Positions 2-44,066 of a stretch of 64,000 nucleotides of DNA are shown one piece after another. A program made the translations under genes and the position numbers. Numbering within the stretch: the stretch's first letter is position 1; each line of letters begins with the position of its first letter. This DNA comes from Bdellovibrionota bacterium (GTDB lineage Bacteria > Bdellovibrionota_C > UBA2361 > CAKMMH01). The DNA lies in NCBI GenBank assembly GCA_050952645.1, contig JBMNLI010000017.1, positions 192,001 through 256,000 on the forward strand. The letters run 5' to 3'. The notes under the pieces were generated by a model. That model was not told where the DNA came from, ran no database searches, and was given only the letters and a program-made list of their open reading frames with translations.

Positions 2-196
2 TCAAAATCTAAAGGCATTACTTATTTTCTGATACCCTTTACGGCTGGAACTTTTATTTACATTAGTGCCGTTGACCTTTTACCCGAGATTAAATCTTCG
101 AGTAAAACGAGTGAAAGGTTATTGCATATATTATATTTTCTTTTAGGAATATTTTTCATATATATTTTAATGATGCACTTTCATCATAATCATTAA
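2..196 (+). CDS. ZIP-family metal transporter, C-terminal fragment (runs off window start)
   Basis: Manual translation gives ...PFTAGTFIYISAVDLLPEI... (ZIP C-terminal motif) and ends MMHFHHNH-stop (TAA 194-196). Confidence 0.8.
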   Translation, partial: SKSKGITYFLIPFTAGTFIYISAVDLLPEIKSSSKTSERLLHILYFLLGIFFIYILMMHFHHNH

Positions 197-1919: not shown

Positions 1920-3383
1920 ATGAATGTAGCTAGACAAGACGAATTTACCAACTCTAAAAAAAGTAAGTTTACGGAGTCTAGTAAACAACAAGTTAGCTCT
2001 AATCTAGTTAGAGTTCCGCCCCATTCCTATGAAGCAGAAGAGTCGGTGCTAGGTGGCATCTTAGTCGACAATTTTACTATTAACGCTGCGATGGAAATTT
2101 TAAAACCATCAGATTTTTATAAAAGAGCGCACTTCAAAATTTTTGAAGCTATGATTTCTCTTACTGAGAGAAGCGAACCGATTGATGCTATTACATTAAG
2201 CGAAGAGCTTAAAAGGTATAATGTGCTAGAGGAATGTGGCGGATTAGAAATGATCTCTAGGTTAGCTTCATCAGTTCCTAGCGCTGCAAACGTTGCTTAT
2301 TATTCAGATGTAGTAAAAAACTTTTCTATTAGAAGAGCTGCTATTCATGAAGCTAGTGAGGTTATAAATAATGCGTTTGATACTGAAAAAAATTTAGATG
2401 AATTTATAGATGAAACTGAACAAAGAATTTTATCTATTGCAGATGAAAAAACTGATAAGGCTTTTACGCATATTGGTGATATAGCGCAAGACGCTTTACA
2501 ACTAGTAGAAAGGTTGTATGATAAGAAAAAATCCGTTACTGGCGTTCCGTCTGGATTTAACAAACTTGATGATTTAACGGCAGGCTTTCAAAAATCTAGT
2601 TTATTTATTTTAGCTGCTCGTCCTGGCGTTGGTAAGACTGCTTTTGCTTTAACTATCGCACAAAATGTAGCATTAAGAGAAGAATTAGCGGTGGGAATTT
2701 TTTCTTTAGAGATGTCGAAAGAAGAGCTTTTTATGAGAATGTTAAGTTCAGAGGCGAGAGTTTCAAATTCAAAATTAAAAACTGGTAAATTTCCCGAATC
2801 GGATTTTCCAAAAATAGTCAATGCCGCAAGCAGATTAACCGACGCCCCTATTTATATAGATGATACGGGGGGTTTAACTATTACGGAGCTAAAAGCTAAA
2901 GCGAGAAGATTAGCTAGAGAAAAAAAACTAGGATTGATCATAGTAGATTATTTACAACTTATGAGAAGCCCGACTTACAAATATAGTAGAGAGCAAGAGA
3001 TAGCGGATATTTCACGTTCATTAAAGGGGCTTGCTAAGGAGCTTGATATACCAGTTATAGCGATTTCACAATTAAATCGTAGCGTAGAGGGAAGAGATGA
3101 AAAGCGCCCAAGGATTGCAGACTTAAGAGAGTCGGGAGCTATTGAACAAGATGCCGACATTATAGCGTTTGTATATAGAGATGAGATGTATAACCCCGAC
3201 ACTCCAGATAAGGGCATTGCAGAAATTATTTTAGGCAAACATCGCTCAGGTCCAACTGGCACTGCAAGGGTTGCTTTTTCGGGAGAGTATACTAGGTTTG
3301 ACCCTCTAGATGAGTCTGGAATAACGGAACAATTCGAGGCTCAAGATTACGAGCAAGATGATTTTGATATAGATTCTTTTTAA
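1920..3383 (+). CDS. dnaB: Replicative DNA helicase
   Basis: PPHSYEAEESVLG, AARPGVGKT, IIVDYLQLM, DLRESGAIEQDAD. Confidence 0.98.
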   Translation: MNVARQDEFTNSKKSKFTESSKQQVSSNLVRVPPHSYEAEESVLGGILVDNFTINAAMEILKPSDFYKRAHFKIFEAMISLTERSEPIDAITLSEELKRYNVLEECGGLEMISRLASSVPSAANVAYYSDVVKNFSIRRAAIHEASEVINNAFDTEKNLDEFIDETEQRILSIADEKTDKAFTHIGDIAQDALQLVERLYDKKKSVTGVPSGFNKLDDLTAGFQKSSLFILAARPGVGKTAFALTIAQNVALREELAVGIFSLEMSKEELFMRMLSSEARVSNSKLKTGKFPESDFPKIVNAASRLTDAPIYIDDTGGLTITELKAKARRLAREKKLGLIIVDYLQLMRSPTYKYSREQEIADISRSLKGLAKELDIPVIAISQLNRSVEGRDEKRPRIADLRESGAIEQDADIIAFVYRDEMYNPDTPDKGIAEIILGKHRSGPTGTARVAFSGEYTRFDPLDESGITEQFEAQDYEQDDFDIDSF

Positions 3384-3392
3384 TTAAAATCT

Positions 3393-3589
3393 GATTCTTT
3401 ATGTTTTAAGTTAGTTTAAAAGAAAATTGACTTTAGTAAAGAACTAGCTATAGTTTAAAGAAAAATTACAACTATATTTAAAGTAATTTATTTTATGTAA
3501 ATTTCTTTAAAGTCAACTTTCTTTTTGGGCCCCGTGGAGAGCGATACTAATTCTTAAGGTCTAAAACCCACCTTAAAACGTGAAGAACT
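3393..3589. mobile_element. MITE-like repeat, subfamily A
   Basis: Right end CCCACCTTAAAACGTGAAGAACT, degenerate left end, internal inverted repeat AAAAGAAAATTGACTTT/AAAGTCAACTTTCTTTT; matches the copies at 38686, 41760 and 53047. Confidence 0.8.
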
Positions 3590-3675
3590 AAATTTTTTCT
3601 TAAATTATTCCCCCTTCCAAACTCTAACATATTGAAATAACGAAACTATTTTTAAGAAAAATTTTGAGAAAAGGT

Positions 3676-3703
3676 TTGACTAATTATTTTAAAATGATAT
3701 ACT
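3676..3703 (+). promoter_or_regulatory. Sigma70 promoter of structured RNA unit 1
   Basis: TTGACT(3676-3681)-16 bp-TATACT(3698-3703), with TG at 3695-3696 (extended -10). Confidence 0.8.
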
Positions 3704-3710
3704 TTTTCTT

Positions 3711-4395
3711 TGTGGTTGAAAGCTTCATGTCAGCTAGCCATAGGGGGTGGGGGGAGAGCGAAGATAGGCAAAGTATTTACTTGAAGAGTGAACGTTGATG
3801 CCTAAGCGTAATCGCTAGCTAAAGTAAGCTCTTAGCTTGCTTTGGCTTATTTTCTGCTCTCTCCCCTAGTTTTAAAATAAATATAACAGCAACAGTAAAA
3901 CGTAGCTTAGGCTTAAAGCTTTAAGTTATTTATGTCATGGGTAGCTAGTAGCAGGTAGCTTGTGGTTTTTGCTCATCGGAGCCACAGACAGCTACTTTCT
4001 CTCGCGGCTACGGCTATTAAGTGTGTTTTACTGTTCTTTCACTCGCTTGACACAAAAGTGTCCAAGGGCGGAGGCGTTTGATGACGACTCCAAACGCCAA
4101 CCTTTGTGAGGGCGAGTGAAGAGGGAGGGGGAATGCATTCTGCGCAAAAGAAACACTACCATGGCATTTCTTCGCGTACCCCCTCCCTCGGCTTACTTTT
4201 ATAAGGTTTTTCCTTAAGGGTTTTTATCTTAAAGAAGGTTTTCTCTTAAGGGTTAAGTCTTAAGGTTTAAAATCGCATATAATGCGAAAATTGAAGATTT
4301 CGGAGCAATGATTTTGAAACAGCTAAGTTTAAAATAACGAAGTTTAAAATAGCGAAGTTCAAAGATGACGCTTCGAAATTCTTCTCCCATATTTT
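3711..4395 (+). ncRNA. Putative large structured ncRNA, unit 1 (unknown family)
   Basis: Stems 3711-3718/3735-3742, 3749-3759/3856-3866, 3891-3901/4025-4035, 4038-4048/4110-4120, 4121-4131/4179-4189; 3' hairpin about 4293-4384 then T-rich tail; no ORF. Confidence 0.65.
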
Positions 4396-4711
4396 TATAT
4401 TTTTACTTTTTCTACTTTTTTCATCTTTATACGTATTAGTACACATCCATATATCTTAATATATCTTTTATAATTTAACCTTTATAATTTACGCCTTACT
4501 CTTAGTAATTATCCTTTTTTAAAAAATATACTTCTAAAAATTCTAACATTAGCTTTAATCCTTAAAAATTATCTAAATCTTAAACTTTTCCTTGTTTTAC
4601 GTATAAAATTTAATTTTAACTTTATAACCTACTAAAAATAATTTAAGAAAAGCTTAAGACATAAAAGATAAAAAAATTTACAAATAATTTAAAAAAATTT
4701 TTCATAAACTA

Positions 4712-4739
4712 TTGACTTGATATCAAAAAGTGTTATATT
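4712..4739 (+). promoter_or_regulatory. Sigma70 promoter of structured RNA unit 2
   Basis: TTGACT(4712-4717)-16 bp-TATATT(4734-4739), TG at 4731-4732. Confidence 0.8.
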
Positions 4740-4745
4740 ACTTTT

Positions 4746-5511
4746 TCATTTAGTGACAACATCAGCAATATTTAATTGCTATAAGTATATAACGAAATAC
4801 GTAGCGACAAGTTGCTTTACAGAGTTCCTACTTGTTAGCTACGAGTTCCCATCACGAAAGAGGGCTAGGTCGTGCTAGTGCCACAATTGCGCGATCTTCT
4901 CCTTTGCTCTTTTTTAGAGCACTCTCTCTAGTGTGGGAAGCAAAGGTTTCGCCGAAGTGAAAGCTTGTTTCAGGCTCTTAAGTAGCGCCTGACTCTAAGA
5001 GTCTTACAAGTTTCACTTATCTTAGCATTTGCAAAGATTAGGGGGCTAGAGTTGGATAAAAAGCGAGAAATCGCACCTTCCTCCGCAGGCTCTAGCCCCC
5101 TACGGCGAAATCTTTAAATTAGATATAATAAAGGCTTAAACCCTTATAAGTCCCCCCTTAAAAGTTCGAAGAGATTCTATAGTAATCCGCCTAGGGGAGT
5201 CTATTCACTTTAAGGGTGGCAAACATAAAATCCTTGCTCTATGTTTTTGCTCTATATATCATTGCTTAGGTAAGCATTTTTTTTAGACGCACTTTTAGGA
5301 GCAAGGCAAAGGGGGGCGCAAGGAGGTTTCATCCTTTTTCCTCTGCGCGGCGCCCCCCCTCTTGGTTTATTTTTATAGCGTTTATTTTTATAGCGTTTTT
5401 TAAAAGGTTCTTCTCGTCTTAATGTTTAAAAACAATTAAGCGATGAGCAACTAAAAAAAGAGGACAACTTGTAAAGGGTTTCGGTAATTTACGAAGCCCT
5501 TTTCCTATTTT
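4746..5511 (+). ncRNA. Putative large structured ncRNA, unit 2 (unknown family)
   Basis: Hairpins 4800-4843 and 4846-4939; four-way junction closed by 4942-4954/5103-5115; stems 5232-5239/5299-5306 and 5311-5319/5350-5358; terminator-like hairpin about 5473-5511. Confidence 0.7.
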
Positions 5512-5682
5512 TAATTAAATTTTTAATTAAACTCGTTTCTTTAATCTTTTTTATTTTTCACATTTTAACCTAAACATTTTAACCTAAACTTTTCTCTTTT
5601 TACATATAAAATTTTTATTTTAATCGACAAACTCACTTAAAAAAATTAAAAAAATTACCTTGCACCCTTACTTACAAAAACA

Positions 5683-5710
5683 TTGACTACATACTCAAAA
5701 ATGTTATATT
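5683..5710 (+). promoter_or_regulatory. Sigma70 promoter of structured RNA unit 3
   Basis: TTGACT(5683-5688)-16 bp-TATATT(5705-5710), TG at 5702-5703. Confidence 0.8.
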
Positions 5711-5716
5711 CAATAT

Positions 5717-6046
5717 TATCGTTTATAGATGCCTTCCTTGCCAACTTGCAATTTAGGTATCTAGAAAAGTGCTTACATTTCACTCCCAATATGCAAACAA
5801 AAGTGAAAGAACATTACAATTAACCTTTTGGATCATTTCTAAAGCTCGTAATGACAAGTTTTTTTAATTAACCCTAAAAAAACTGCATGCACTTTTCAAT
5901 TACCCTTTAATTTTAACTAATTACTAAAGAGAGAAATTAGAAAAAGAAAAGGAAGGCTTTCCCATCTCTAAAAAGTTTTAACCTTGCACTCTTTCTTTTT
6001 TCTCTCTTAGGAGGTAAAAATAACAAAAGGCTTTTTGCTTTTTTTA
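5717..6046 (+). ncRNA. Putative structured ncRNA, unit 3 (AU-rich, unknown family)
   Basis: Stem 5726-5734/5755-5763; 5764-5772/5889-5897 enclosing three hairpins; 5927-5936/5999-6008; T-tract about 6038-6045. Confidence 0.55.
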
Positions 6047-6102
6047 TAAATAATATTTTAAAAAGTTTTTTGCAAAAAAAATAAAAATATTTTGCAAAAA
6101 AC

Positions 6103-6132
6103 TTGACTTGCTTTAAAAAAAGAGGTTAATAT
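6103..6132 (+). promoter_or_regulatory. Sigma70 promoter of structured RNA unit 4
   Basis: TTGACT(6103-6108); -10 less clear (TAATAT 6127-6132, 18-bp spacer); structure starts at 6139. Confidence 0.6.
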
Positions 6133-6138
6133 TGACCT

Positions 6139-7170
6139 TTGTTAGTTACTGAGACGTAGCTCACCCTACAATTTCTCATAGCTAACAATTTGCTCAATAC
6201 TTTAGCTAAGGAATTCCTTAAAGCTAGTGTCGAGCATGCTTTCGCCTTATAACAGAGAAATTTAGATATGCTTCTCGTTGAAACGTGTCTTCCTACAAAA
6301 TGCTACGTGCAGTAGGCATAGCAAATCTCTATAACATTTCCCTAGAGTTTGCTGTGGTTTCTTTGTTATGTTCAGGGAAGCGAGGAAGGTCGTCGAAAGT
6401 AGTTTAGCATTGGCTACTTTCTTAACCTTTACTTGCTTACCCTGAGGGCGAAAGTTAATTCTTGTTATTTTTAGTTTTGCAAACAACATTTTTTTTTAGC
6501 GTTCGCAATTAAAAATTGCAGTTAAAAAATCGCAGGTTAAAAAGTGTTATAAGGTATATTTATATTGGTGGTTTTAGCAAAGCACTATTTTAGAAAATAG
6601 CGATTATAAGGAAATAAAGAGATGCACTCTCCTTGGCTCCTACGCCCCTTTAGTTGATAAGGCTAACAAGCTGCAAGCCTTTCATTGGGGTAAAGCCTTT
6701 CACAAAATCAAAGGGGCGTAGGTGCTCTATTTGAGTTTACTCTTTTTCTTTTCTCGTTATTTACTATTATTATTGACGCCTGGCATCGATACATAAATAA
6801 TTATCTTGTCTATTATTTTAAGCGTCTTGCGTATTATTATTCGCATTTGCTAAAATACCACCTCTCGAGGCGGAGTGGAGGAACTTTTCTTTTCTAGCAT
6901 CTCTTATTTTCTACCCCTTGATGCTTAGAACCTCTTTGTGCGGGCAACGTGAATGTTTCGCACGGGCATTGCGCGTTGTGTTTCCCCACCACTCCACTCC
7001 GCCTCACTCTTTAACGCTTCTGTAAAAAAGGAAGCTATAAAGGTTCTTTAGAATGTTTTTATAGATGGTTTTTAAAAAATTATATATAATTTTTTCTATA
7101 AAAAGATTTTAAAGGTGGCAATAAAAAAGATTTAAAGGCTCGCCTTTAAAATCTTTTTCCCATTTTAATT
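6139..7170 (+). ncRNA. Putative large structured ncRNA, unit 4 (possibly two RNAs: 6139-6455 and 6567-7005)
   Basis: Hairpins 6139-6188 and 6191-6236; junction closed by 6238-6247/6446-6455; stems 6567-6581/6846-6862, 6639-6651/6710-6722 (13 bp perfect), 6867-6880/6992-7005 (14 bp perfect); terminator-like hairpin about 7123-7166. Confidence 0.7.
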
Positions 7171-7451
7171 CCTTACTTAATTATTATTTACTTAATTTTT
7201 TCTAATTTAATTTTCTCTAATTAAATTTTTTATTACATCTGTTAATTTTATTTTTTCAATTTCCCCCCTTTCTTTGCTTTCTTTTGCCTTGCTTTTATTT
7301 GCTTTTCCTTTTTTTTCCCTTAACTTTTTATATTTACTTTTTGATCCGTTTAAAACATTTCATTTTTTTATATTTCTTATGGTTGTTTTCTTTTACTTCA
7401 TTTTTTATAATAAAGTTTCAAACTTAAATTCTAAAATTTTAAAGGCTATTT

Positions 7452-8636
7452 ATGATAAGAGAAATTACTGAAAATATATATTCACTACGTGCTATAGATT
7501 GGAATGTAAGAGAATTCCATGGATACGAAACTAAAAGCGGTTCTACCTACAACTCATACTTTATAAAAGATAAGAAAAATGTGCTAATAGACTCTGTAAA
7601 ACATACATTTAAAGATACATTGTTAAATAATATATCTAGCGCGTTAGAAACTAGCAAGCTAGATTATATCGTTTGCAACCACGCAGAGCCAGACCACTCA
7701 AGTGCAATTAAGGATGTTATAAAAAAATATCCAAACGCTACTCTTATATGCAACCAAAGATGTAAAGATATTCTCTCTTTGTATTACAACACTACTGATT
7801 GGAAATTCCTAATTGTAAAAGATGGCGATACCATAAACTTAGGAGAAAATGAACTATATTTTTACGATACCCCAATGGTTCACTGGCCAGAATCTATGAT
7901 TACATACGTCCCTAATAAAAAACTCCTATTTTCCATGGATATTCTAGGACAACATTACGCCTCATCATTTATATTTGATTATGAAGAAAAAAAAGAAACT
8001 CTACTTTCTGAAGCAACGAAATATTATGCAAATATAGTTTTGCCCTACCCTAAACAAGTTTTAAATGCATTAGGAAAAATAAAAAAATTAGATGTCGAAA
8101 TAATCGCTAATAGCCACGGACTTATAATTAAAAAATATTTGCCTGAGATGCTCTCCTTATACGAAAATTTTGCTAATGGTATAAATAAAGAAAAAGCATT
8201 AGTAATTTACGATACAATGTGGGGAAGCACTGAAAATATAGCCTTTAGTTTAATAAGCGGCCTAAAAACTAATAAAGATTTAGAGATTAAAGTTTGCGAC
8301 CTAAAAACTACTCATAATACTATCGTTGCTAGCGAGGCAATAGATGCAAAATATATCTTAGTAGGCTCCCCTACCCTTAACTCAAATATCCTGCCTACGG
8401 TTGCTAGCACTCTTACTTACCTAGAGGGACTAAAACCATTAAATAAAACTTGCCTCTGCTTTGGCTCATATGGCTGGGCACCTGCATTTGCTAAGAAGAT
8501 AACCGAATATTTTGAAGCATTAAACTGGAATATATTTTCAGACCCTATAAGCGTTAAATACAAACCTACTAACGCTTTTTTAAATGATTGCTTTAATATT
8601 GGAAAAACTCTTAGCACTTATAATCAGCATCAATAA
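7452..8636 (+). CDS. fprA: Flavodiiron protein (FprA-type; metallo-beta-lactamase plus flavodoxin domains)
   Basis: GSTYNSY, NHAEPDHS, PMVHWPESM, YDTMWGST, FGSYGW. Confidence 0.92.
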   Translation: MIREITENIYSLRAIDWNVREFHGYETKSGSTYNSYFIKDKKNVLIDSVKHTFKDTLLNNISSALETSKLDYIVCNHAEPDHSSAIKDVIKKYPNATLICNQRCKDILSLYYNTTDWKFLIVKDGDTINLGENELYFYDTPMVHWPESMITYVPNKKLLFSMDILGQHYASSFIFDYEEKKETLLSEATKYYANIVLPYPKQVLNALGKIKKLDVEIIANSHGLIIKKYLPEMLSLYENFANGINKEKALVIYDTMWGSTENIAFSLISGLKTNKDLEIKVCDLKTTHNTIVASEAIDAKYILVGSPTLNSNILPTVASTLTYLEGLKPLNKTCLCFGSYGWAPAFAKKITEYFEALNWNIFSDPISVKYKPTNAFLNDCFNIGKTLSTYNQHQ

Positions 8637-42169: not shown

Positions 42170-44066
42170 ATAGGGTAGAGCGAGGGCTATACCCTCTCCC
42201 TCCCGTCGCACCGTACGTACGGGTCTCGTATACGGCGCTCCATTAATATAATATCAAGTAATACTCAGGTAATACGTCAAAGGGTCGATTAAACCAATTC
42301 GTTCCTTTGTTTTACGCCCCAATATTTTAGGGCTTAATGCATAATTCACTACGTACCACGAACTGCGTCTATACCAGCCGAGTCTGCTGTTAGCAACCTT
42401 ATAGATTTCTTCATTTCTAAAATTGCAACCAAGCATTCGGTTCAATTTCTTAAGATTTAGATAGATTCGTCTCGGCAATTTCCACTGTTTAAGTATTATA
42501 ACCCTCACTTTGTGTCTAAGCCATTGACCATATTTATCTATAAAAGTCTTAAGAGTTCCTATCTTATAATAGTTTATCCAACCTTTAATTAACCAGCTTA
42601 GCTGTTGAAATGTCGAACCTAACGTTCGTGCCATTGCCTTCCGTCTACAAAGAATTTCTCTAGTTTTATCATAGAGTTTTCGTTTGCGATCTTCAGCAGG
42701 TTTACATTTCCAAGTTTTATACCCACTCTTCCAGTAGGTAAAGCCTAAGAAAGTGCTTTCCGTCGGCCTAGAGATTTTACTCTTACTTGAATTAATTTTA
42801 AGTCGTAGCTTACGCTCCAACCAACTCGCAACGGACTTCATTACTCTATTAGCAGCCTTTTCACTTCTAACAAATATATTACAGTCATCGGCATATCTAA
42901 CAAACTTAAGTCCTCTTGCTTCCAGTTCCTTGTCGAGTCTTATCAAGGTATATGTTAGATAATACTGGGGATAATGGACCTCCTTGCGGAACTCCTTTCT
43001 CACTTACAGTAAACAATCCATCTTCCATTATACCAGCTCTTAAGAACTGTCTTATCAATCGTAGTGTCTTCGCATCTTTGATGCGTTCCCTGATTATCGA
43101 AATTAATTTGTCGTGATTAACAGTATCAAAATATTTCTCTATGTCTAGGTCTATAACCCAATCATAGCCTCTTTTCAAGTACTCAAGAGTTCTATATACT
43201 GCTAGATGGCAATTCCTTCTAGGTCTAAAGCCATAGCTACTATTACTAAAATACTTTTCGTATCCGCGTGCTAGTATTTGCGCTACCGCTTGTTGAATTA
43301 CCCTATCTACTACTGTAGGTATTCCTAAAGGTCTCATCTTACCATTAGCTTTAGGTATATACACTCTCTTAACTGGACTCGGCTTATAATTCCCTTCACG
43401 TATCTGAGATTTTATCTCTTCTCTGTGAACGGCAAAATAGTCTTCAAGCTCATCTACTGGCATATCATCTACACCAGATGCACCTTTATTTCGCTTAAAC
43501 AGCCTTTATAGCCTCATCTATATTTTTGTCTGATATAATTAGTTCAATCAATTCCACCTGTTGCTCCTCCCTCTGTTTGTAAAGCTACTAGAAAACACCC
43601 CCTCTATCTTCTGCCCCCACAGGTTACGTTCCTGTTTGTTAGGCATATCCTTCAATTTCGGACTCTTCTAGCCTTGCTTACAGTGATTCACAATATATTA
43701 ACGTTCAACCCTTCCTTGAGTGGTGTCTCAAGTACTATGGTATCAACTGACTTCCAGATATAAGCTTTATATCGCACGTGCATAGCACGCTATCTGGACC
43801 TCCCGGGGTAAGGCATAGTTCTTTCACCAGACAACCTCCAGATTTACTCGTTTGGTTTTACGTTTGTCTTTAGGGCTTCGGTTTGTAGCGCAACCTCACC
43901 CACCATTTAGCCTTGTATCTGGTTTCTGTTCGTAGGCTCCTTGGTTTTGATCCGCCACTTCCTTCACTCTAACATTACTGCTTCGAGCTTGTGGCATCAC
44001 TACACTTGGTGACAACTACCCGTGACGGGACTTTCACCCGCTAGAACTATGTCGTGCCCGGCACAC
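42170..44066 (-). mobile_element. Group II intron, class C (IIC), 1897 nt
   Basis: 5' GTGTG; domain V GAGCGCCGTATACGAGACCCGTACGTACGGTG with CGC triad; 3' end CTACCCTAT; boundaries fixed by the intact neighbouring repeat (GGGC|TTCGTG). Confidence 0.95.
42254..43557 (-). CDS. ltrA: Intron-encoded reverse transcriptase/maturase, no endonuclease domain; two apparent +1 frameshifts (about 43498 and 42937)
   Basis: GGAGG RBS and GTG at 43557; NKGASGVD, RPLGIP, SYGFRP, PQGGPLSP, RYADD, FLGF, GWINYY. Confidence 0.92.

Follow-up and report, generated by a model that had tools for sequence, protein, structure and literature searches.

The window analysed here, a 64-kb stretch of DNA from a Bdellovibrionota bacterium (C17:192001-256000), contains a 4-kb gap between the replicative helicase gene dnaB and a flavodiiron-type protein gene, which we take to be fprA. 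This gap is likely a cluster of undescribed noncoding RNA (ncRNA) genes, in which each unit is without a match in Rfam. Four folded units stand in it, each behind a promoter-like site (P1-P4, Table 1), and it is likely that they are structured RNAs transcribed from the + strand, each from a separate ncRNA gene. The gap measures 4068 bp, holds no open reading frames (ORFs) of at least 100 codons and ranks fifth in length among the 84 gaps of at least 800 bp in this genome (1.95 Mb, ~31% G+C, 94% complete). The neighbours of the array are dnaB and core genes, tRNA genes are absent from the 64-kb window, and the bodies of the units are single-copy in the genome. The DNA runs with this stretch came from digester, bioreactor, landfill and wastewater metagenomes. 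The array was assembled nearly unchanged, in parts, in contigs of four runs from four studies (0-9 differences each); none of these contigs spans the whole array, but together they cover much of it, so it is not an assembly artefact. Our literature searches returned no description of this locus, with the supplements of ncRNA surveys, whose motif lists could bear on novelty, outside their scope.

Promoter-like sites in front of the units

A sequence-only reading of this DNA had reported an identical promoter architecture before each unit. Its coordinates and letters for the sites at 3676, 4712 and 5683 were correct on re-check, and the TG at -15/-14, the run of 4-5 A in the latter half of the spacer and the A/T-rich upstream DNA are present at P1, P2 and P3. 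The identity is restricted to these three. At the fourth site (6103) the spacer is 18 bp long, the -10 is TAATAT and the TG is missing, so that the four sites are not identical.

The strict pattern TTGACT-N13-TGN-TATAYT matched three times in the 1.95-Mb genome, and all of the matches fell in this gap, within 2 kb. In the 64-kb window the shuffle mean for this pattern was 0.00, and 0 of 100 shuffles reached 3. Because the strict pattern was derived from these very sites, the generic pattern TTGACN-15..18-TANNNT was also scanned. It gave 5 matches on the + strand of the gap versus 0.33 expected, and none of 2000 local shuffles reached 5. Promoter-like sites overall were at the background level (19 versus 16.7 expected), so no antisense promoter stands out. 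A fifth TTGACT-16-TATAGT, at 3427-3454, sits within a ~200-bp dispersed repeat (repeat A) and was therefore excluded from the promoter set; copies of this repeat account for 9 of the 13 genome-wide TTGACT-16-TATANT matches. TTGACT is also the commonest near-consensus -35 of the genome (13 of 19 TTGACN-16-TATANT matches), so a common -35 is no proof of descent.

To see which genes other copies of the motif precede, as the sequence-only reading had proposed, the genome was scanned with the relaxed pattern TTGACW-N13-TG-N-TANNNT. The motif turned out to be rare in the genome rather than common at random intergenic sites. There were 8 matches: P1-P3, the promoter of the rRNA operon (C9:4090, - strand, 534 nt 5' of the 16S gene start motif), that of tRNA-Val (C15:50659), one site ahead of a gene whose ribosome-binding site is strong, and two others. 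The design of P1-P3 is thus common to this genome's own rRNA promoter. Both the rRNA-operon and the tRNA-Val promoters share TTGACT, the 16-bp spacer, TG and TANNNT with P1-P3. Unlike P1-P3, the rRNA promoter has no A-run in its spacer; the upstream similarity of the two promoters to the array is weak (z 1.1-2.8), and the rRNA operon lies on the G-rich strand whereas the array lies on the C-rich one. In the three relatives of the family, which consists of 4 genomes with this organism, the TG-type pattern had 0 matches.

The comparison with Escherichia coli stable-RNA promoters, also made in the earlier reading, was not borne out: a TG extended -10 is present, the discriminators are A/T-rich, and the 16-bp spacer is rare at this genome's own stable-RNA genes. 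The bases after the -10 in P1, P2 and P3 are TTTTCTT, ACTTTTT and CAATATT, and rrn P1-type promoters have a G+C-rich discriminator and, two bases past the -10, a C. This C, which is present in this genome's rRNA promoter, occurs among P1-P3 in P2 only. A/T tracts resembling UP elements lie upstream of the sites, but A+T makes up ~69% of the genome, and dispersed repeats adjoin some of the tracts. Among 34 stable-RNA upstream regions, 17 had a promoter match of at least 9/12, with best spacers of 17 bp (9), 18 bp (4), 16 bp (2) and 15 bp (2). As the 16-bp spacer was best in only 2 of these 17, the design of P1-P3 is not general for the tRNAs of the genome. P1-P3 do resemble E. coli rrn P1-type promoters, as described in an excerpt of PMC5101437, in the 16-bp spacer, near-consensus hexamers, A/T-rich upstream DNA and lack of a GGG discriminator. 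The same excerpt lists, next to the 16-bp spacer, an absent extended -10 among the traits of E. coli rRNA promoters, whereas P1-P3 have one (PMC5101437). Moreover, P1-P3 lead no rRNA or tRNA, and the spacer of P4 is 18 bp long.

As a separate observation, two TTTTGCAAAA palindromes, 22 bp apart, are located immediately 5' of P4 (window 6067-6102) and form a possible regulator site.

Predicted folding of the units and strand asymmetry

The units were folded and compared with 10-30 shuffles each. On the + strand, the folding z-score of unit 1 was -8.3 (3710-4200) or -6.7 (3710-4270), versus -6.6 on the - strand. The + and - strand scores were -11.6 and -6.6 for unit 2 and -6.3 and -2.0 for unit 3, and unit 4 reached -16.3 (6139-7150) and -11.7 (6139-6460) on the + strand and -8.6 on the - strand. 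The predicted folds pair about 63-72% of the bases, and their helices reach 25 bp if small bulges are allowed. In a genome-wide folding scan, z fell below -4 in 11 of the 52 gap windows versus 4.6% of 3071 intergenic windows. Over the 300 nt immediately downstream of the site, z was <= -3.4 at all four P sites versus 3 of 32 control consensus-promoter sites from this and related genomes. The G+C content of units 1, 2 and 4 is 0.36-0.44 versus ~0.31 for the genome, and that of unit 3 is 0.30; raised G+C is described in part of PMC11109978 as a signal used for finding ncRNAs in low-GC genomes.

Single (1x1) mismatches in the helices of the units were then counted, with helices found by both strands and G.U pairs disallowed, so that the helix definition has no strand bias. 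On the + strand there were 13 G.T mismatches and 1 A.C (p 0.002). Across the background of 186 other intergenic hairpin regions, the G-rich strand was favoured by 83:50. Since the + strand is the C-rich one here, this background predicts an excess of A.C on the + strand of the array, and the observed G.T excess differs from it with a Fisher p of 7e-5. This result suggests that the + strand is the one that folds as a single strand, or that it serves as the non-template strand during active transcription. On the scale of the contig, GC skew changes sign near C17 350 kb, fitting a replication origin, which places dnaB and the array on the lagging strand.

The composition of the hairpin loops bears on another possible role, in which the four transcribed RNAs would be base-pairing regulators whose C/U-rich loops, carried on stems, pair with the ribosome-binding sites of mRNAs in the manner of RNAIII and 6C RNA. 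The loops are G-poor (C 66, G 24), and several of them, in the sister-species unit described below as well, read as anti-Shine-Dalgarno sequences; the fast divergence of the units would also suit such RNAs. RNAIII of Staphylococcus aureus and the actinobacterial 6C RNA are likewise multi-hairpin RNAs with C/U-rich loops, and the C-rich loops of 6C RNA bind targets according to a portion of PMC6486639. Unlike them, the units have no Rfam match and no target found, and form four genes with rRNA-like promoters. When 19 loops were set against 1322 crudely called genes, the start-region duplex beat the coding-region controls in only 8, with no standout target. The unpaired spacers are also as G-poor as the loops, so the loop composition may be a regional bias. 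We regard the pairing role as unlikely.

The units might instead be tandem type I toxin-antitoxin loci or small-peptide mRNAs, with the ribosome-binding site hidden in the folded mRNA. Type I systems typically form tandem, folded loci, and unit 4 does contain a hydrophobic ORF of 24 codons at 6722 with an upstream purine-rich run inside an 18-bp helix. However, such an ORF occurs in one of the four units, and at least one arises in 28% of 200 shuffle trials. Nine small ORFs gave no credible match in Pfam or NCBIfam (one weak match, E 0.056). This explanation is very unlikely.

Relations among the units and to the sister species

A 3' tail of ~100 nt is common to units 1 and 2 (z 10.2; reached by none of 100 global or 100 local shuffles), and no homology between the two was detected upstream of it (z 0.6). 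Upstream of P2 and of P3 the sequences are also related to each other (z 4.6), and most of this relationship comes from a dispersed palindromic repeat that has ~20 other matches. All other unit pairs were unconvincing, with z of at most 2.6 (global shuffles) or 2.2 (local). Since homology is limited to the tail of units 1 and 2 and the regions before P2 and P3, duplication is shown only in part. The earlier proposal that the promoters are better conserved than the bodies accordingly fits units 2 and 3 (upstream z 4.6, bodies z -0.5) and fails for units 1 and 2 (upstream z -0.5, bodies z 10 from the shared tail). A covariance model built from the two copies of the shared tail retrieved no further member, the best outside match having E 0.07.

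In the sister species the corresponding gap is ~2.5 kb long. It contains a VTC-domain gene and a DUF4956 gene on the other strand, followed by TTGACA-17-TAATAT and a folded body of ~560 nt (z -8.8) directly upstream of fprA. This unit does not align with units 1-4. A four-way junction free of linker bases is predicted in both unit 2 and the sister unit, and 0 of 150 shuffles of either gave one; our literature search for a perfect four-way junction in bacterial noncoding RNA found nothing. The common predicted junction would represent a shared design and is not proof of descent.

This arrangement allows unit 4 and the sister unit to be seen as long regulatory leaders of fprA-lipB-rsmD, units 1-3 then being spare copies. 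Each of the two species of the genus has, immediately 5' of fprA and in the same orientation, a folded unit led by a promoter with a TAATAT -10, and no + strand site of at least 9/12 was found between 6801 and the fprA start. On the other hand, a member of the family manages fprA with a gap of ~130 bp, hairpins and a C-rich tract close unit 4, units 1-3 have no gene to lead, and Rfam gave no riboswitch match. We consider a leader role highly improbable.

BLAST searches found no homologue with the gap or units in 41 relatives, with the sister unit in 91 genomes of the order, with unit 1 in 124 genomes of the class, or with units 2 and 4 in 5 genomes. The matches obtained were repeat copies within the organism's own genome and, beyond these, short or A/T-rich stretches only. 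The gap and units had no match in 50,697 phage records or in plasmid records, and two exact patterns had 0 matches in viral contigs. Searches for the locus anchored on FprA returned only distant relatives (best 49% identity), which were not used.

The gap could also be a transcribed zone that is functionless or selfish, an insertion-prone site collecting repeats, duplicated promoters and template-switch hairpins. Palindromic repeats abound in the genome, and this gap contains two of them. The gap also differs in every relative: it contains two unrelated genes and one unit, or ~130 bp, or repeats and a contig end. The test on strain variants described in the Discussion was null, as such a zone would have it. 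Against this, the bodies are single-copy, G+C-enriched and multi-branched, 3 of the 8 rRNA-type promoter matches are kept before them in a small genome (1.95 Mb), and the strand-specific G.T excess opposes the background. We regard a functionless or selfish origin as unlikely. In the further family genome (G003) the gap is split between contigs. In that genome, the stretch from 3' of dnaB to the contig end (L026:2250-3059) carries direct repeats together with REP-like, G+C-rich palindromes.

Comparison with known RNA families

Rfam gave nothing credible for the gap or the sister unit, at either the gathering or the E <= 10 threshold, and nothing credible on 5 further loci. The units were not matched by the covariance models of GOLLD, ROOL, OLE and GEBRO; GEBRO was the best near-miss, at 16.8 bits versus a cut-off of 284.7. 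As summarised in sections of PMC12286853, GOLLD, ROOL and OLE are, like the units, 0.5-1 kb long and non-coding, with extensive multi-branch pairing, which in the units is predicted. GOLLD and ROOL occur in phages or prophages, often near tRNAs, by the same partial account (PMC12286853), whereas the array sits among core genes. ROOL can equal 16S rRNA in abundance and is yet non-essential, according to these sections (PMC12286853). Unlike the large ornate ncRNAs, the array consists of four tandem units that are dissimilar, and it is not conserved outside the species. It resembles these RNAs only in size and predicted fold, and by these models it belongs to none of them.

The units could still be unrecognised members of a known ribonucleoprotein class, such as 6S RNAs, template RNAs of retron or UG27-type reverse transcriptases, Y RNAs or omega RNAs. 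No 6S RNA was matched at E <= 0.1 with strict filters in 61 genomes of the order, which may therefore have a divergent or missing 6S, and a divergent one may exist. Retron RNAs have a closing stem with a long hairpin, and some domains of the units look alike. The array itself, however, had no match to 6S RNA (RF00013), a rod of ~190 nt around a central bubble, even at E 10. The 12 reverse-transcriptase matches in this 94% complete genome all fall at copies of one group II intron, with 0 matches in 3 relatives including the sister genome. The TROVE protein that marks Y RNA/Ro60 systems was not found in 4 genomes (0/4; control positive in 2 of 14). Of the proteins that go with omega RNA, the TnpB domain was not found in this genome; the IscB search gave no match, the controls likewise being without a match. 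The genes for RNase P RNA, signal recognition particle (SRP) RNA and tmRNA lie elsewhere in the genome. Membership of a known class is the least probable of the explanations considered. The RNase P RNA measures 502 nt (model 367; C7:130421-130922) and the tmRNA 431 nt (C17:374943-375373), and the stable RNAs of this genome thus appear expanded.

Other features of the gap and dispersed repeats

The features of the gap and its boundary genes are collected in Table 1. Repeat A has many genome copies, four of them in tandem at C9:43005-43775, and carries its own TTGACT-16-TATAGT. A group II intron, of which the genome has about ten near-identical copies, usually lands in this repeat. One of these lies in the window at 42170-43984 on the - strand (Rfam RF02001, RF00029), between repeat A copies, with its reverse transcriptase in two ORFs. 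Repeat B (window 4583-4660) is a MITE-like element of ~130-230 bp with terminal inverted repeats, of which only the left half is found before P2; it has about 20 other matches, e.g. C17:75039 and C12:276456. Another locus, L242 (G001:C28:54540, - strand), has 300 nt of folded sequence (z -4.8) behind a consensus promoter, without an Rfam match.

Table 1. Features of the dnaB–fprA gap (window positions)
Feature	Position	Strand	Basis or remark
dnaB replicative helicase, left boundary gene	1920..3383	+	PF03796, PF00772
Repeat A copy, ~200-bp dispersed palindromic; contains 3427-3454 TTGACT-16-TATAGT, not a unit promoter	3386..3610		one of many genome copies
P1: TTGACT, 16 bp, TG, TATACT	3676..3703	+	motif scan
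Unit 1, ~560-nt body (ends approximate), G+C 0.44	3710..4270	+	predicted long-stem chain, 3-way junctions
Unit 1 3' tail	4169..4270	+	homologous to 5342-5429 of unit 2
C-rich G-poor weakly folding spacer (C 45, G 10)	4380..4660	+	from 4583 left half of repeat B
P2: TTGACT, 16 bp, TG, TATATT	4712..4739	+	motif scan
Unit 2, ~765-nt body (end estimated), G+C 0.41	4746..5510	+	folding z
Four-way junction, no unpaired linker bases (predicted)	4942..5115	+	pair probabilities 0.81-0.96
Intrinsic-terminator-like hairpin and T tract closing unit 2	5473..5512	+	terminator scan
C-rich G-poor spacer (C 29, G 3)	5505..5680	+	partial similarity to repeat-B segment before P2
P3: TTGACT, 16 bp, TG, TATATT; 76% identity to P2 over 34 nt	5683..5710	+	motif scan
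Unit 3, ~330-nt body (end estimated), G+C 0.30	5717..6050	+	predicted four-way junction, long stem
Weak terminator-like hairpin of unit 3	6020-6047	+	predicted
P4: TTGACT, 18 bp, TAATAT, without TG	6103..6132	+	motif scan
Unit 4, ~1.0-kb body (end estimated), G+C 0.36	6139..7160	+	several predicted multi-branch domains
A/T-rich terminal hairpins of unit 4	7046-7114, 7123-7158	+	predicted
C/T-rich G-poor spacer (C 46, G 13) before fprA	7150..7450	+	base counts
Flavodiiron-type protein gene, right boundary	7452..8636	+	beta-lactamase fold and flavodoxin

Discussion

If the four units are structured RNAs of the + strand, a shape-based role as scaffold or decoy is somewhat favoured. It is our first choice because there are no ORFs and no targets, three units have no downstream genes, the helices are long and the junctions compact. 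We rank it ahead of the pairing regulator, which is followed by the neutral or selfish transcribed zone. Taken as a whole, the proposal of four ncRNA genes acting in trans by shape remains tentative, with a chance slightly below even.

In the proposed mechanism, RNA polymerase with the housekeeping sigma factor would fire strongly at P1-P3, perhaps under the control that acts on rRNA promoters, and P4 would be fired differently. The head-to-tail row would yield four transcripts of ~0.56, 0.77, 0.33 and 1.0 kb without a long reading frame. Their ends may be set by hairpin and T-tract signals, or by Rho in the C-rich G-poor spacers. The Rho gene is present in this genome, and weakly folding tracts with C over G resemble Rho loading sites. 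The transcripts would fold tightly and act in trans via their shape, by binding proteins or one another. The array probably grew at least partly by duplication, which would have been followed by fast divergence with the long helices kept.

Several observations weigh against this proposal. The G.T excess could come from transcription-linked mutation, in which case it would show transcription and not function. By GC skew, the array is oriented head-on to the inferred replication fork, whereas the rRNA operon is co-directional, and the head-on orientation therefore weighs against an output at the rRNA level. Terminator-like sites were not enriched (4 versus 4.0 expected), and only unit 2 is closed by a terminator picked by the scan. 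The sister unit has more confident pairs on the - strand than on the + strand (134 versus 104). The dnaB–fprA gap of another family member is only ~130 bp, so the array is not universal. The units have no sequence homologue even in the same genus, unlike the conserved ornate RNAs, and no target was found for them (19 loops, 1322 genes). Strain variants were taken from the shallow contigs of 4 of the 14 listed runs, leaving out 4 listed substitutions outside the units. Among those listed, 9 of 24 in-unit substitutions break a predicted pair versus 8.6 expected, which gives no sign of selection.

A bolder picture, which we think unlikely, would be an operon-like chromosomal bank of four large, dissimilar and fast-evolving RNAs, each driven by its own rRNA-type promoter of near-rRNA strength and made up of long helices and four-way junctions free of linker bases. 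They might build an RNA-based particle or serve as double-stranded-RNA decoys, and would form a lineage-specific class invisible to homology searches.

The promoter design itself is ordinary sigma-70 biology, and its value is that of a marker: ~2.7 kb of likely RNA genes get 3 of the 8 rRNA-type promoter motifs of a 1.95-Mb genome. The known large bacterial RNAs were found via conservation, and their functions are still poorly understood, as part of PMC12286853 relates. If the units are expressed and folded, large RNAs can keep their position, promoter and helix-rich design while sequence similarity is lost within a genus. The units would then also provide four new molecules for in vitro synthesis and direct probing.

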